From positions 921 to 64,920 of the forward strand of contig JBDTMN010000005.1 in assembly GCA_039934295.1 (NCBI GenBank): a stretch of 64,000 nt of DNA, written 5' to 3'. The stretch is from Candidatus Tayloriibacteriota bacterium (GTDB lineage: Bacteria > Patescibacteriota > Minisyncoccia > Phycocordibacterales > HO2-43-120). This document shows positions 10,448 through 64,000 of the stretch, piece by piece; the stretch's first letter is position 1; every line of letters starts with the position of its first letter. A program made the position numbers and the translations under genes. The notes under the pieces were generated by a model. The model was not told where the DNA came from, did not search any database, and saw only the letters and a list, made by a program, of their open reading frames with translations.

Positions 10448-10896
10448 AAATAAAAAGTGACAAAAAAGCTAAAGAAGAATTTGCAGAAATTCTTAAAACT
10501 AGAGGTTATTCTGATGTGCGGATAGTAAAGCAACCAGCTGATATTACTGCTATAAAAAATGATACAACATATTTTTTTGAGATTAAAAAAACTTCTGCGA
10601 AGAAGGAGTATTTTGGTGCAGCGACACTTACGGAATGGAGAGCTGCATATGAAAATCCCAATAGTTATTTTTTTGTTATAGCACAAGAGATACCAGAAGG
10701 TTTTAATTTTATTGAGTATACTCCTGATGAATTTGAGAAATTCTCATCTATTCCTCCTTTTAAAATATTTTTCAACATACCTTTAAATGGAAATAACAAA
10801 GTTGAAACAAGAAGGAAAAATAGGTCTGCAATTCAATTTATGAGAGAAAAATTGATAAAATTGGACGAGATATTTTCAACTTTTAAAAATGGCTAA
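10444..10896 (+). CDS. hypothetical protein with a possible PD-(D/E)xK nuclease-like core
   Basis: ADITAIKNDTTYFFEIKKT fits a D...ExK arrangement. Overlaps its neighbours by 4 and 8 bp, which suggests one operon with radC and the endonuclease. Confidence 0.4.
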   Translation: MKIKSDKKAKEEFAEILKTRGYSDVRIVKQPADITAIKNDTTYFFEIKKTSAKKEYFGAATLTEWRAAYENPNSYFFVIAQEIPEGFNFIEYTPDEFEKFSSIPPFKIFFNIPLNGNNKVETRRKNRSAIQFMREKLIKLDEIFSTFKNG

Positions 10897-51877: not shown

Positions 51878-52613
51878 TATATTTTTTAATTAATTCTCTC
51901 GACTTCCCACGGTGTTCCAAAAACTCTAAAACCCTTTCGGGCTAAATCAATTTGCAAAGCAAATTGATCGCCCAAGGGAAAGACCAGGTTTTCGGTTCTC
52001 CGTTATAAGCCATACTTCCCGCCTGCCTAAGCCTCTCAATCTTTAATTGCTAAAGGCATAAACAAGACAGGACCCTGCCTAAGTTCCTATTTACCGAATA
52101 CGGCAATAGGCGGGCAGGTCTCCGCATCACTGCGGAGTAGGACAACAAGACACTTTTTCCCGCCCGTACCGAATGGTACATTCGGGCGAGGCAGTGTCCA
52201 TCCCCAGAGTAGCTTTTGTCCGATAATCTTCCACCGCGTCTAATGCGTATGGTCGGTTCACTATGTTCTGCTTTCGCATCTGTTTGACAAGTACGTCTCA
52301 CAGTTAAGCCAGCTTGTGCCATTACACTATCGGCACGGTTTCCATTCGCGCCTAGCTGACCTTAATAAACTCCTCCGTTACTTTTTAGGCATGTTGTTAC
52401 GAATTAGCTTTTAGCTTTCAGGTGTTAGCTGTTAGCTTAAAGATAATTAGGACAAGACATTTCTGCTTGTCTCTCTATGTCGCCATAGAGGTCGGACTAT
52501 ATCATCATCCGACATTAGTTTTCCAAGGTTCGACCTTGGATCAGGAAAAAGGTCGAACCTTAATCCAAAAATTAATGTTGGAGATCAGCGTGTAGTCTCT
52601 GAGGGAATTAAAA

Positions 52614-58975: not shown

Positions 58976-59204
58976 TAACTTTTGAGAAAATTCGAGACAA
59001 GAAGGGCTTACGCGTTTGGATGCTATTCGAGGCGCGAGTGAGGTGAGGAGCGAATACTTGGAGCTCCGCAAGACTCTGAACGTTTCGTCTGCGAAATGTG
59101 AAGAGTGTACTGCTCCTGTAAGGAGGGTGACCAAGCTGTAGTTTGATACTACTGCGCGGGAACAAGGAGGAAGCAACGAAGAAGAGCGCCAAACGCGTAA
59201 GCCC

Positions 59205-59867
59205 TTAAAAACTCAATTTAATGCCGGTTCGGTCAAAGAGAACCTCATGAGGGTAGTCCAGGATATCGCGCACAAGCTTGTCGTAGATACTCATTCGGTA
59301 TTTGAAGTCTTGAGTTTCAAGATAGGTATATTGGAGTTCCTTGCCTATTTCGGCTTCTATGCTTTTTATTGCTTGAGTGAGCTTTTTTTTCTGAATTTTA
59401 TCTCCAACAACGAGAATATCCACCCGGGAATCCCAATTCTGAATGAACACTCCCGCTATGATGACGAGCTTTACTTTTCCTATCGCCGAAAATCGTTGGA
59501 GAATTTCATTCTCCTTCACCAATATGGTGTTTATGAGGAGATTCTGAAGCTCTCTCAAATAGGTAAATCGGCTGTTAAGCGTCCAACCATGCACCTTCCT
59601 TTTGGTGTGAACAATCATCATCTTTCTCTTCTTGCCTCTTTTCTTCTTACCGACAAAAACAGCGCGGGCAAATGATTTCACAAAGCTTTTTCTCGAGAAC
59701 AGGCCGATGCCTTCGAGAGCAGACAATTCCTTCTTCGCCACATCTTTTTCCACCCGAGCCCTCTTTGACACGTCAAAGATGTCGTACGCCGACTTGGCGT
59801 TAAAAAGAAAAAGTCGCATGATTCTCACCTTTGCTTCGGACCCAAAAATTTTTCCTAGAGTGTCCAT
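59205..59867 (-). CDS. hypothetical protein
   Basis: 220-aa ORF with a basic linker (KKKRGKKRK); no motif recognised. Confidence 0.4.
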   Translation of the reverse strand: MDTLGKIFGSEAKVRIMRLFLFNAKSAYDIFDVSKRARVEKDVAKKELSALEGIGLFSRKSFVKSFARAVFVGKKKRGKKRKMMIVHTKRKVHGWTLNSRFTYLRELQNLLINTILVKENEILQRFSAIGKVKLVIIAGVFIQNWDSRVDILVVGDKIQKKKLTQAIKSIEAEIGKELQYTYLETQDFKYRMSIYDKLVRDILDYPHEVLFDRTGIKLSF

Positions 59868-60018
59868 GGGGTAGGTGTTAGCTGTTAGGTGTTAGGTGTC
59901 AGGTGTCAGTTACAGATTGATTAGGCAATTCTATCTCATCTAGCTGTGGGATAGCTAGTATTGACATTATGAGTAGCTATTGTAATATCTGCAAAGCAGA
60001 AAACACGCGGTACAAGAT

Positions 60019-60348
60019 ATGGAAAATCTAAACGTTCAGTTAACCACTCACGAGACAATCATTTTGGCGAGCCTCGTTCAACTCCTGCGAGATCAAGTCT
60101 ACAATCTTGCAGAGCAGACAGTACGAGCCTTAATGTCTTCGAAATCGCCGGACACGTCAACCGAGGAAGAGCCCCCTAAAGCTTCTCCGGAAAAGGTTAT
60201 CAATATTCCACTGCCCTTAATCTGTGCTTTGGAGCAGTTGATGAAGGATAAGGAGAAAAGCATCCAGGCGCCAAATTTCCCCATTCTTCTGGAAAGGTTC
60301 AAGGAGGCTCGTCTCTCTGCGAGGCATTCGCCCAATGGCGGTTCGTAA
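60019..60348 (+). CDS. hypothetical protein
   Basis: 109-aa ORF followed by a strong terminator. Confidence 0.35.
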   Translation: MENLNVQLTTHETIILASLVQLLRDQVYNLAEQTVRALMSSKSPDTSTEEEPPKASPEKVINIPLPLICALEQLMKDKEKSIQAPNFPILLERFKEARLSARHSPNGGS

Positions 60349-60369
60349 GAACCGCCTTTTTTATTGCAA

Positions 60370-60402
60370 AAGTCCCAAAGGTTGAACCTTTGGGACTTTT
60401 TT
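60370..60402 (+). terminator. intrinsic terminator (AAGTCCCAAAGGTTGAACCTTTGGGACTTTTTT)
   Basis: 10-bp GC-containing stem followed by a T-run. Confidence 0.75.
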
Positions 60403-60460
60403 CATGAATCCTGAATCTTGCCCGTCCGCCGAAGCCTGAGCGGAGGCGGGAATCGTGAAT

Positions 60461-60880
60461 CTATTTGAGTTCGACTTTTGCCCCCGCGGTCTCCAGTTTC
60501 TTCTTCATTTCTTCCGCATCCGCAATCTTCACTCCTTCTTTGAGAACTGAAGGAGCCGCATCTACAAGATCTTTAGCTTCTTTAAGTCCGAGTCCGAGAA
60601 CATCTTTTACAACCTTGATAACCGCAATCTTGGTCGCGCCCGATTCTTTCAAATGCACGGTCACAGTACTCTTCTCCTCTGCTACAGGAGCACCTGCGCC
60701 ACCTGCCGGAGCCGCCGCAACTGCCGCCGCAGAGACTCCCCACTTCGCCTCAAGGAGCTTGACGAGCTCGTTGAGGTCCACAATCGTGAGTTTCTCAATT
60801 TCATGAACGATTCCCTTAAATTTTTCGGGAACCTGCCCGACTGCGTCATGCGGGCGGGCCTCAATTTTTGTTTCTTCCAT
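60461..60880 (-). CDS. rplL: 50S ribosomal protein L7/L12
   Basis: Ala-rich hinge [14 protein letters not shown] and the C-terminal domain [24 protein letters not shown]...; start placed at MEETKIE. Confidence 0.9.
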
Positions 60881-60996
60881 AATGTTTACCACGATACAAA
60901 TCTACAAATGCATTCGAATGATACGAATGACAGCGGGCTCATTCCCATTCGTTGCATTCGCATACATTCGTATATTGGCATCGATTTTATTAGTAA

Positions 60997-61482
60997 TTAA
61001 CTTTTCTTCGCCTTCTCACTCAACACCATCGCAAACCTCTGTCGCGGTGAATTAATGAGATTCACGAACATTCCCCGAAGTGCCTGCAAGGAAGGGATGA
61101 GAGCGATTGCCCGTATTTCTTCCTTATTTTTGAACACCCCTTCAAACACTCCGCCCAAAAGAGAGAACTTGTTTTCAAACTTCTTTGCGAATTCAAACAC
61201 TTCCCTTGCTGGAGCAGTGGGCTCGACGCTGTAGGCAACCCCGACTTCTCCTAGAAGTTCGGGCATCTCACCTTCTATTTTTGCATCGGTGAGCGCCCTC
61301 TTCACAAGCGTTTTCTTGGCCACGTAGTAACCGACATTTTTCGACTTTAAGACACGTCTTGCTTCGCTTATGTCTTTCACCGTCATCGTGTGGAAATTTA
61401 CAAAGGCCACGCCCTTGTTTTCTCGGGCAAGTTCAGCCAGTTTGGCATATATTTCTTTCTTTTTTTCTTTTGATATTGGCAT
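60997..61482 (-). CDS. rplJ: 50S ribosomal protein L10
   Basis: MPISKEKKKEIYAKLAELARENKGVAFVNFHTMTVKD...; the typical L10 N-terminus. Confidence 0.9.
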   Translation of the reverse strand: MPISKEKKKEIYAKLAELARENKGVAFVNFHTMTVKDISEARRVLKSKNVGYYVAKKTLVKRALTDAKIEGEMPELLGEVGVAYSVEPTAPAREVFEFAKKFENKFSLLGGVFEGVFKNKEEIRAIALIPSLQALRGMFVNLINSPRQRFAMVLSEKAKKS

Positions 61483-62031
61483 GCTGATTAGCTTTTAGCT
61501 ATTAGCTATTAGCTTCTAGCGTAAATAAAAACGACCTTTACCCGGTAGTGAATTTTGGCGATGCGCAAAGCGCTGGACAAAGTCCCTCGCCAAAATCTAC
61601 TACGGGGTTTGATAAAAGGCAAAGAGGAAAAGCAAAATGCTTTTGAGATAAACCTCGGCAGGTCTTGGGGGAAGGTGTTAGGTTTGAGGTGTTAGGTGTT
61701 AGTTGAGAAGATAGGAAAAATCCAATCTAATCCTGCTTACACCTTTCACCTTTCACCTGTAACCTACCCTGCCCGCTGTCTCTGGCCTTATTTCGACATC
61801 TTATTAAATTCCTCTATTTTGTCAACATGACAAGCGACGTCCCTTCCTGCGGTACTTAGTCGATTTTAATCAATTCCACAGCGGCGGCTTGATCCATTTT
61901 TTGCCGTTCATAGCTTGCGACGAGAAAAATAATTATGCTTACGAAAATTATAGCAAGAAACCCTCCTGCAAATCTAAAAAAAGTCTTGTCGAAATATCGA
62001 AACATGCATAAAGTATAACGCATCAAGTGAC

Positions 62032-62048
62032 AAGTATAAAGACAAAAA
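62032..62048. repeat. REP-like perfect palindrome CCAAGGGTTACCCTTGG
   Basis: 17-nt perfect palindrome just 3' of the transposase gene; copies at 62771, 62813, 63840, 63906 and 63966. Confidence 0.7.
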
Positions 62049-62083
62049 TCTCCAAGGGTTACCCTTGGAAATTTTTCCCTCAC

Positions 62084-62743
62084 TTATATAGCATCGGGAT
62101 CAAAATTGATCCACTCAAAAAGATTCGTCTTGAAATCGTTTGTGCTTCTAAAGTAGGCGGGAAAAGCCGAAGAATTGATTATCAGACTATTCTCTCTTTT
62201 CTCTCCAATATAATCTAAATAACTAGAATCAGAGTAACTATGCAAAAAAGTTTTTGCGATATCTTTTTCGATTTTCTTCTCTCTCCACAATGGATCAAAA
62301 ATTTTAAGGGGGTTGAGATGAATGTATGAAAAAATATATTTCAAATACTCATCTGAATCTAGGTGAGAGGATTGAAATTCACCTTCAAAAAGTATCCCGG
62401 TTCTAGCATATTTTTTATTAAAATACATGGAGTAGCTCGTCTTCAATTTTGACATAAACTTCACAATACCTCCTTCCTTTATTTCTCTCACTAAGATATG
62501 AAAATGATTCGGCATCAAGCAGTAAGCTCCAATCGCGACCAATTTTTCTCCAACATTAGTTGATGAAAGTGGCGTATTTCCGATATCTTTATAAACTAAT
62601 GACTGACTTCCGTTACAAAGAAATAACAGCCTTACAAATCTTTTTTTATCATTTTTGTCCAAATAAATAATACGCTTATCAACACCCCTATTATAAAGAT
62701 GATAGTGCTCATGAAGAGCAAATGGAGTTTTTCTAGTACTCAT
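62084..62743 (-). CDS. tnpA: IS200/IS605-family Y1 (HUH) transposase, RAYT-like
   Basis: HUH motif region IGAYCLMPNHFHILV and the conserved Y...YFN context; 219 aa; flanked on both sides by the palindromes. Confidence 0.75.
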   Translation of the reverse strand: MSTRKTPFALHEHYHLYNRGVDKRIIYLDKNDKKRFVRLLFLCNGSQSLVYKDIGNTPLSSTNVGEKLVAIGAYCLMPNHFHILVREIKEGGIVKFMSKLKTSYSMYFNKKYARTGILFEGEFQSSHLDSDEYLKYIFSYIHLNPLKIFDPLWREKKIEKDIAKTFLHSYSDSSYLDYIGEKRENSLIINSSAFPAYFRSTNDFKTNLFEWINFDPDAI

Positions 62744-62760
62744 TGTTATTAGTTATTAGG

Positions 62761-62830
62761 ACTTTAATCTCCAAGGGTTACCCTTGGAACGTAGGAATAT
62801 GGGTAGATTGCGCCAAGGGTAACCCTTGGA
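62761..62830. repeat. REP-like palindrome pair with conserved linker (…CCAAGGGTTACCCTTGGAACGTAGGAATATGGGTAGATTGCGCCAAGGGTAACCCTTGG)
   Basis: Two palindromes 25 nt apart; the same composite unit recurs at 63816..63856 and 63940..63983. Confidence 0.7.
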
Positions 62831-62836
62831 GGGAGC

Positions 62837-63730
62837 TTACTTCGACTTAACGGCGTTTTGAATCAACTCGGGAGAAAACCCTTGAGGAATGTTTCCGGTC
62901 GAAGCGTATTCATAGAGTGCCAGTTTAAAAATCGCCCCTAGGCAGGAAGAGACGATAGAAAGAAGGATGACGGCCAATAAAAGAAAGATTCCGATTGCTA
63001 TCCCCATTTTAATCGTTGGAAAAAGAATAAATAGTGTAACACCGACACCGAACACCGCGAAAAAGAGAAGTCCGAAGACTAATCCCACTCCGAGATTTAT
63101 AATAATCGTTTCACCCCAAGTTTTTCGAATAATCGCCGCAGACTCGTGGAACGAATCTTTGATTGATTTTTTTCCGATAATAAGCGAGGGTAGACTGAAA
63201 TAGGTAAGGATATTCCAAGCAGCGCCAAAAATCATCGCCACGATTTTGCCGATGATTTTCGAATTGTCGGCAATGATCCGGAGGACAAGGCCTACCGTTG
63301 AAGAAATCAGTGACCAAAGAGCAATCTTCGGAGCATTTTCGAAGGCGGCTTTTATACCATCTCCCAAACTCAAGTTTCCTCCTTTAAACCGAGCATCAAC
63401 AATCAGATACATTCCCGCCTGAAAAAAATTTGTGATAAAGAATACGATAAAGTACCAGACAAAAAGGACTGCGTAGGAAGTCACGTTCATTTGGTTCTCA
63501 TTCTCTAAAGTTGCCAAACTTCCTCCTAAAATGACAAAAAAATAAATTGAAGCTACAACCGCAAGCGCGAGAATGCTGAAAATCGAGGAGAGCACGGGAA
63601 ACAAGAGGAGCTCTTTATCCTGATTCAAGACACTCCAAGATTCACGGACAATCATTCGGCTAGCTTTAAACTTTCCGATAGTAAGCGGAACGCGAGGAGG
63701 CAATGACGAAACTTCATTTTGAGTGGGCAT
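62837..63730 (-). CDS. hypothetical polytopic membrane protein
   Basis: 297 aa, 6 or more TM helices. Confidence 0.45.
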   Translation of the reverse strand: MPTQNEVSSLPPRVPLTIGKFKASRMIVRESWSVLNQDKELLLFPVLSSIFSILALAVVASIYFFVILGGSLATLENENQMNVTSYAVLFVWYFIVFFITNFFQAGMYLIVDARFKGGNLSLGDGIKAAFENAPKIALWSLISSTVGLVLRIIADNSKIIGKIVAMIFGAAWNILTYFSLPSLIIGKKSIKDSFHESAAIIRKTWGETIIINLGVGLVFGLLFFAVFGVGVTLFILFPTIKMGIAIGIFLLLAVILLSIVSSCLGAIFKLALYEYASTGNIPQGFSPELIQNAVKSK

Positions 63731-63799
63731 AGCTATTTTGAATCATAATGATAATGAGAAAAGTATACCATATATGGATTTTTACCCAAGGAGACTCCT

Positions 63800-64000
63800 A
63801 GGAGTACATTTTGGAACGTAGGAATATGGTTAGATTTCGCCAAGGGTAACCCTTGGAAACTCTTGGAGGGTTCTTGGAGGGTTTTGGTGGCAAAAAAGTG
63901 GAGAAGGGTTACCCTTGGAGGGTTTTTAGAGAAAAGGTCGACGTAGGAATATGGGTAGATTGCGCCAAGGGTAACCCTTGGAAACTCTTGGAGGGTTCTT
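63800..64000. repeat. array of REP-like palindromes and GGAGGGTT short repeats
   Basis: CCAAGGGTAACCCTTGG at 63840 and 63966, a partial copy at 63906, and repeated CTTGGAGGGTTCTTGGAGGGTTTTGG between them. Confidence 0.7.

Follow-up and report, generated by a model that had tools for sequence, protein, structure and literature searches.

The 64-kb stretch of DNA analysed here (the window) derives from a genome of Candidatus Taylorbacteria within the candidate phyla radiation (CPR), and copy counts given for this source genome cover the window only. Towards its end, a gene for a 219-aa Y1 tyrosine transposase homologue is accompanied by copies of a palindrome of 17 nucleotides (nt), CCAAGGGTWACCCTTGG in the form used for counting. 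We consider it probable that this locus is a module resembling REPtrons or TIRtrons, i.e. a resident, single-copy class-2 Y1 enzyme of the type of tyrosine transposases associated with repetitive extragenic palindromes (REP; RAYT) or with terminal inverted repeats (TIR; TIRYT), together with its cognate palindromic hairpins. Direct support exists for the class of the enzyme, for the arrangement of gene and hairpins, for their co-variation, and for the dispersal of the palindrome in related genomes.

The initial annotation had described six palindromes within 2 kb. Six copies are indeed present, five of them exact and one with 2 mismatches, as compared to 0.00 expected by chance (100 dinucleotide-preserving shuffles); three of the positions had to be corrected (62032 to 62052, 63906 to 63902, and 63966 to 63965). 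As described there, the palindromes bracket the Y1 gene, with one copy 16 nt past the stop codon and another 27 nt ahead of the ATG. Further copies follow within 1.3 kb, as one perfect inverted doublet and as a cluster at 125-nt spacing (Table 1). The palindrome behind the gene is embedded in a longer, near-perfect one, which has a predicted single-stranded DNA (ssDNA) fold of -10 kcal/mol (z -3.6) and appears terminator-like when both strands are scored. For the inverted doublet ahead of the gene, the 25-nt spacer of which (AACGTAGGAATATGGGTAGATTGCG) contains two GTAG motifs, a fold of -22.8 kcal/mol (z -6.8) is predicted. Doublets also overlap at 63840/63902/63965. A composite unit ACGTAGGAATATGG(G/T)TAGATT(G/T)CGCCAAGGGTAACCCTTGGA, consisting of ACGTAGGAATATGGKTAGATTKCG and the palindrome, was recovered three times, in agreement with the initial annotation, and its copies B and C display 97% identity across 60 nt. 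Near the hairpins of the window, GTAG is restricted to the composite unit, at a distance of 6 nt on the 5′ side and 3 nt on the 3′ side; elsewhere it was found 3′ of hairpins in two homologue loci (L118 and L036). A tandem repeat or CRISPR-like nature of the region 63816–64000 was considered and rejected: Tandem Repeats Finder reports only half-site repeats of 10–11 nt, and the 125-nt spacing results from two units in the same orientation with an opposite copy between them. A known structured RNA was also rejected, as Rfam returned 0 matches at E ≤ 1 across 60000–64000.

Table 1. Features of the Y1 locus (window coordinates).
Feature	Position	Strand	Remarks
17-mer CCAAGGGTTACCCTTGG, exact	62052–62068, 62771–62787		T centre
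17-mer CCAAGGGTAACCCTTGG, exact	62813–62829, 63840–63856, 63965–63981		A centre
Degenerate palindrome AGAAGGGTTACCCTTGG	63902–63918		2 mismatches; T centre; orientation opposite to both neighbours
Near-perfect 33-nt palindrome AAAAATCTCCAAGGGT-T-ACCCTTGGAAATTTTT	62044–62076		Holds 17-mer 62052–62068; 8–40 nt past Y1 stop
RAYT-like Y1 (HUH) tyrosine transposase homologue, 219 aa	62084–62743	-	NHFHIL within PNHFHIL
Catalytic residues of the Y1 enzyme			HUH H80-F81-H82; Tyr Y140 in YIHLNP
Upstream flank repeat	62754–62789		Holds 17-mer 62771–62787
REPIN-like inverted doublet	62769–62831		17-mers 62771 (T centre) and 62813 (A centre); perfect 19-nt arms
Composite unit, copy A	62789–62831	+	ACGTAGGAATATGGGTAGATTGCG, then palindrome
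Composite unit, copy B	63816–63875	+	Palindrome 63840–63856, then CTTGGAGGGTT half-site repeats
Composite unit, copy C	63941–64000	+	Palindrome 63965–63981; cut by the window end
DUF6159 membrane-protein gene	62837–63730	-	Pfam DUF6159, E 1.6e-33; between repeat clusters

The enzyme belongs to the Y1 HUH superfamily (HUH denoting two histidines around a hydrophobic residue) and to the Y---NP class. The HFHIL motif of the initial annotation was found as NHFHIL, and the catalytic tyrosine lies in YIHLNP. The Pfam model Y1_Tnp (PF01797, "Transposase IS200 like") matches the protein with 38.4 bits (cut-off 23) and also matches all members of an alignment of 32 homologues, in which H80-F81-H82, F123, Y140-I-H-x-N144-P145 and S173 are invariant and S174 is nearly so. 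A C-terminal extension of ~70 aa carries the conserved SS motif. The tyrosine motif places the protein in class 2 (Y---NP), as opposed to Y---Q in IS200 class 1.1 (Quentin et al., 2018, PMC6006769), and the fold is that of the Y1 HUH superfamily: the best Foldseek match of the protein model is the E. coli RAYT (4er8_A, E 3.9e-6), ranking above every TnpA structure of IS608, ISDra2 and IS200. In hhalign comparisons, the family aligns with E. coli RayT from HUH through YIxxNP, and only around HUH with an IS200 TnpA reference, the identity of which was validated only by its score on the NCBIfam IS200 model (NF033573, 148.6 bits). The same model has no match to the window protein at E ≤ 0.01. Sequence searches of PDB chains, using the protein as well as the 32-sequence profile, found no Y1 transposase because the family is too divergent; fold comparison alone worked. 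Subclass 2.1 is characterized by NH[YF]H, FQ or W[EQ], Y[IV]HLNP, a proximal SS tail, and a median length of ~238 aa (Table 1 of PMC6006769). The present family displays PNHFH, F123-Q/K, YIHLNP and S173-S174 at a length of 215–250 aa, and by motif inspection fits subclass 2.1, i.e. group 1 of Bertels et al., which is largely TIRYT.

Metagenomic relatives show that hairpin and gene belong together. Relatives of the Y1 gene are encoded on 552 of 600 scanned stretches; 80 loci were examined, 75 of which were usable in a strict test. Nearly all of the 80 loci have a hairpin 35–70 nt ahead of the start, with a TATAAT-like box after it, and another hairpin 0–40 nt past the stop. The identical hairpin core is present on both sides of the gene in 43 of the 75 usable loci, and these cores vary from locus to locus. 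The exact 17-mer flanks the homologues in loci L103, L060, L036 and L114, the hairpin of the latter reading CCAAGGGTAGCCCTTGG. Locus L099 carries a compensatory variant, CCGAGGGTTACCCTCGG, in which both arms are changed; it forms doublets on either side of the gene and recurs in three more places within 8 kb. The three syntenic relatives described below have hairpins CCAAGCCCTCCCCTTGG (with outer GTAG/CTAC), TCCAAGGACCCGCCTTGGA and TACCAAGGAGACTCCTTGGTA. In 153 kb of homologue flanks, 11 extra copies were counted at more than 300 nt from the gene (expected <1). Over a total of 84 homologue loci, changes in the Y1 gene go along with changes in the flanking hairpins. As most loci share one core between both sides of the gene and the core varies between loci, each gene has a cognate hairpin of its own, and a gene-specific cognate repeat is the defining relationship of REPtrons (PMC6006769) and TIRtrons (Di Nocera et al., 2013, PMC3733652).

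The 17-mer is dispersed in other CPR genomes. With one genome scanned per species (596 Gb; gene calls at the fetched loci are crude), the exact 17-mer was recovered in 115 genome stretches, ~83 of which lie in CPR metagenome-assembled genomes (MAGs) of many classes, including Paceibacteria, Kaiser-, Zambryski-, Adler-, Nomura- and Ryanbacteria, among others. Individual CPR MAGs contain 3–12 exact copies on separate contigs, as compared to ~1e-4 expected per Mb (12 in Modern_marine.mb.145, 8 in UBA910, and 7 each in C4_bin-407 and H41-bin017_1). The CPR copies are mostly intergenic and located at the 3′ ends of genes: by the crude gene call, 59 of 93 (63%) are intergenic, as compared to 7 of 32 outside CPR, and they are flanked by co-directional genes 30 times, by convergent genes 13 times and by divergent genes once. 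The palindrome extends beyond the 17-mer by at least 1 bp in 76 and by at least 3 bp in 37 of the 93 CPR copies; flanks are A-rich on the 5′ side and T-rich on the 3′ side. Position -1 is T in 67% of copies, and the adjoining positions are T/A-rich. Eight of the 17-mer stretches encode a Y1 homologue as well, which the palindrome directly flanks in five or six of them; gene-less hairpins outnumber the Y1 genes. The 32 stretches from outside CPR hold singletons, 25 of them inside open reading frames (ORFs), and were set aside because their number is at or below the ~70 chance matches that we roughly estimate for 596 Gb.

The family itself is large. Among 5.8 billion proteins searched, more than 7,900 matches were found, and the closest non-self relative is just 65% identical. 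At 50% clustering, the family comprises 285 clusters (E ≤ 1e-30) or 4,551 clusters (E ≤ 1e-10). Most homologue clusters occur on 1–4 contigs. All named matches are from CPR. Part of this is already on record: the identical NCBI protein is annotated "MAG: transposase [Candidatus Taylorbacteria bacterium]", and one homologue bears the IMG name "REP element-mobilizing transposase RayT". The Y1 gene is present in one copy in the 64-kb window. Three relatives (P0002, P0016, P0043) occupy a common slot, in the order FtsK, a 260–290-aa gene, a ~640-aa peptidoglycan (PG)-binding protein, Y1, PKD, and beta-helix-LCAT; their RecA proteins are 83–87% and their Y1 proteins 50–53% identical, and the hairpin is different in each. 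In locus L122, the Y1 gene is inverted relative to L118 and L123 with its neighbours unchanged (PG-binding and PKD/beta-helix, near FtsK-RecA-EFP), as expected if recombination between flanking inverted hairpins had flipped the gene. We also considered a phage-borne or plasmid-like mobile gene, which is unlikely as viral contigs yielded next to no relatives, with 8 singleton 17-mers and one 26%-identical relative among them. The family pattern resembles that of a resident gene rather than of a spreading insertion sequence (IS).

By analogy to E. coli TnpA-REP (PDB 4ER8) and IS608 TnpA, the Y1 protein would bind the hairpin when it is extruded in ssDNA, for instance at the replication fork, and would cleave and rejoin the DNA beside it via a 5′-phosphotyrosine intermediate. 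Such cutting and rejoining may copy, move or maintain the hairpins and may allow for their occasional spread. Just past the stop codon, the hairpin probably has a second role as a terminator in both directions, and the one ahead of the gene is probably an operator by which the Y1 protein controls its own expression.

Several points weigh against this interpretation. The "field" of palindromes claimed in the initial annotation holds for six copies only and is local: all lie within 2 kb, and no palindrome was found in the remaining 62 kb of the window, even when searching for the 13-nt core with 1 mismatch. Copies of the 17-mer are few per genome, and 73 of 96 copies elsewhere are singlets. Hence, a population of paired REPs (REPINs) is at most a possibility; of the RAYT/REPIN system proposed by the initial annotation, the RAYT-like Y1 enzyme with cognate palindromes stands, and the pairing into doublets is perfect at 62769–62831 and mostly missing in other CPR genomes. 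The repeats 62754–62789 and 62035–62070 form 36-nt direct repeats (86%) on either side of the gene, as at the ends of IS200/IS605 elements, and the orientation of flanking hairpins is mixed across the family (inverted 23, direct 18). The window gene lies outside the slot shared by its three syntenic relatives, adjoining rplJ/rplL instead. A GT[AG]G motif, the canonical mark of REPs, is absent directly at the hairpin foot, and on the NCBIfam RAYT equivalog model (NF047646) the protein scores 39.7 bits, below the curated cut-off of 80, as compared to 179 bits for E. coli RayT. According to Quentin et al. (2018, PMC6006769), genes of subclass 2.1 enzymes have no REP-like structures in their vicinity. 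The proposed binding, cleavage and mobility derive by analogy from E. coli TnpA-REP and IS608. As the protein falls below the RAYT cut-off and the canonical GTAG foot is missing, we do not count the locus among the canonical RAYT/REP pairs (groups 2 and 3). In its mode of action it would resemble such a pair. The RAYT-like reading of the initial annotation is supported by the class-2 motif and the RAYT-like fold; it is limited by the NCBI RAYT cut-off, the missing GTAG foot, and a signature that is that of subclass 2.1 and not of the classical proteobacterial groups.

An alternative that we regard as improbable is an ordinary, possibly decaying IS of IS200/IS605 type at ~62035–62789, in which the palindromes would be the left and right subterminal hairpins and the neighbouring copies solo ends or elements similar to miniature inverted-repeat transposable elements. 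The direct repeats, which contain the hairpin and bracket the gene, a unit of ~755 bp near the size of IS200, and the Pfam label would fit such an element, as would the breaking of short-read contigs at the repeats and the remark by Bertels et al. (2017, PMC5581495) that group 1 is one of the RAYT groups with more IS-like character. However, the tyrosine motif is Y---NP instead of the Y---Q of class 1.1, the protein with its conserved C-terminal extension is 219 aa long as compared to ~150 aa for IS200 TnpA, and a tnpB gene is absent at the locus. The low identity of the closest relative, the occurrence of most clusters on 1–4 contigs, the excess of gene-less hairpins over genes, and the synteny of three relatives despite diverged hairpins also argue against it. 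The initial annotation had named confinement of the palindrome to this locus along with ordinary IS ends as the outcome that would speak for a common IS copy; the window copies do lie within 2 kb and the 36-nt direct repeats exist, yet the 17-mer is dispersed in other CPR MAGs and the IS200 model is unmatched.

Little likelihood is also assigned to the idea that the palindromes are primarily host elements kept by selection, acting as intrinsic terminators in both directions or bound by some other DNA-binding protein of CPR, and that the Y1 enzyme neither moves nor processes them; those around the Y1 gene would then reflect gene regulation only. The extension of palindromes beyond the 17-mer with A-rich 5′ and T-rich 3′ flanks, the marked preference for gene 3′ ends (13 convergent contexts and 1 divergent context), and the hairpin 62044–62076, terminator-like on both strands, point in this direction. 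So do the identity of the 17-mer across several CPR classes, which is unusual for REPs, and the upstream hairpins directly preceding TATAAT-like boxes. However, terminators require no conserved sequence, and the hairpin co-varies with the adjacent Y1 gene, on both sides in most loci; a general terminator or the site of an unrelated factor is disfavoured because it would not co-vary with the Y1 gene. In addition, the closest structural relative was crystallised on just such a hairpin.

The module interpretation invites comparison with three known systems. The E. coli REPtron (RayT = TnpA-REP, YafM, PDB 4ER8, with REPs in bacterial interspersed mosaic elements (BIME); Bertels group 2, Quentin 2.2) shares only 9–12% protein identity with the present enzyme. 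The hairpins here are short perfect palindromes with 1–5-nt loops that lack a GTAG foot, are mostly singlets, and number from a few to a dozen copies per ~1-Mb genome, whereas E. coli holds hundreds; REPs are species-specific, in contrast to the 17-mer, which is common to several CPR classes. The TIRtrons, the TIRYT of which correspond to subclass 2.1 (PMC6006769) and to RAYT group 1 (PMC5581495), share the motif signature, a length of ~220–240 aa, and a low-to-moderate repeat copy number with the present system. Group 1 flanking 16-mers average ~12 per replicon (Bertels et al., 2017, PMC5581495), which agrees with the low counts found here, and some TIRs are self-complementary and occur in dimers or clusters (Di Nocera et al., 2013, PMC3733652). 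However, the GGGGWSAS motif reported for subclass 2.1 TIRs is missing here, and nearly every member of the present family has clear hairpins on both sides; CPR was outside the coverage of the surveys of TIRtrons, subclass 2.1 and group 1. With IS200/IS605 elements (IS200, IS608, ISDra2) the locus shares the HUH/Tyr core, subterminal hairpins recognised by the enzyme, and a unit of ~0.75 kb made up of gene and hairpins. The Y---Q motif, the ~150-aa TnpA, multiple near-identical copies, and a frequent tnpB were not seen in the window and in the homologue search.

The RAYT/REP system is a textbook example of a domesticated bacterial transposase, the host role of which is unsettled. To our knowledge, it has been studied almost only in Proteobacteria and Cyanobacteria, and our literature searches found no paper linking RAYT or REP to Patescibacteria/CPR. 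As thousands of related CPR genes share this layout of gene and hairpins, the locus adds a lineage and a flavour to a system already known, and represents neither a new kind of system nor a new mechanism. Its unusual traits are the short perfect hairpins, a 17-mer conserved across classes, and a DnaA-box-like foot in a third of the family loci. A very large RAYT-like family (>7,900 proteins) resides in ultra-small, streamlined CPR genomes with its own hairpins beside the genes, some in a conserved chromosomal slot, and the retention of the module by strongly reduced genomes argues for a benefit to the host. The association with hairpins is hereby extended to enzymes that bear the signature of group 1 (subclass 2.1). 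The short perfect hairpins would also offer a compact biochemical test system.

We further hypothesize, with considerable reserve and as a rather unlikely extension, that CPR or Paceibacteria possess a lineage-wide, vertically inherited Y1-hairpin module that was recruited to serve the host, beyond selfish DNA. Such a reading is allowed by the 17-nt palindrome being constant base for base over several CPR classes, by the succession of A-tract, hairpin and T-tract almost exclusively at gene 3′ ends, reminiscent of a transposase-maintained portable bidirectional terminator in compact genomes, and by the DnaA-box outer foot at about a third of the family loci. If true, these would also be the first clear REP-like hairpins linked to subclass 2.1 (group 1) enzymes, for which earlier work had found none.

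Perfect DnaA-box sequences (consensus AAGTTATCCACAG) are located beside hairpins that flank Y1 genes, often as the outer foot of a longer hairpin. Examples are L122:9870–9925, L118:9925–9990 and 10652–10700, L162 upstream of 428, and L206 on both sides of 346–990. Up to 150 nt from gene ends, the exact DnaA-box 9-mer has a density of 0.91/kb, as compared to 0.059/kb elsewhere; a copy with at most 1 mismatch is present in 27 of 84 loci, and copies ahead of the gene concentrate at positions -62 to -70 relative to the start. Under the host-function hypothesis, this would suggest that expression or action of the enzyme is coupled to DnaA and replication. In the window, a DnaA box is absent from 62000–64000, and neither a Bac_DnaA_C nor a helix-turn-helix domain was detected in the protein family. 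The DnaA box as a part of the dispersed 17-mer element was rejected, as it is found near 5 of 96 copies, with 4.3 expected.

Some further observations concern the hairpins and their surroundings. At loci of UBA910 and BMS9Abin13 (L010, L013, L034, L085), a motif AAATTACACCAC / GTGGTGTAATTT lies 8–25 nt off the palindrome on one or both sides, and it also occurs downstream at L143 and L190; it might correspond to the TTATCCACA foot in particular lineages. The palindrome is found inside the Y1 coding sequence at L103:2396–2412 and L036:1431–1447, where it encodes the conserved QG(L)PLD between helix A and strand 2. Many homologues (e.g. P0100, L103, L060) read through the downstream palindrome and end in tails ...YPRVTLG or ...QGLPLD. 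These palindrome-encoded stretches resemble the in-frame REP insertions of subclass 2.4.

Two contigs from the same organism in the Logan assembly SRR26386571, L001 (~59114–62800; 3.7 kb) and L002 (~62800–63870; 1.1 kb), have their ends inside palindromes. As short-read contigs begin or stop inside the palindromes, these repeats evidently break CPR genome assemblies, which explains recurrent short-read assembly breaks in CPR MAGs.

The membrane-protein gene that the initial annotation had placed between repeat clusters was confirmed in this position and is a bystander outside the module. Apart from this gene, Y1 has rplJ/rplL and a small ORF, located downstream of it, as neighbours. In the intergenic region that separates this ORF from rplJ, short 7-nt tandem repeats lie at 61673–61765 (AGGTGTT four times, CTTTCAC three times), each being roughly the reverse complement of the other. 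A second palindrome class, CCAAGGTTCGACCTTGG, is present at 52523–52561, with a partial inverted copy AGGTCGAACCTT 10 nt later. It is intergenic, between ORFs ending at 52322 and 52614, and may represent a relic of a different or older family of cognate hairpins in the same genome.

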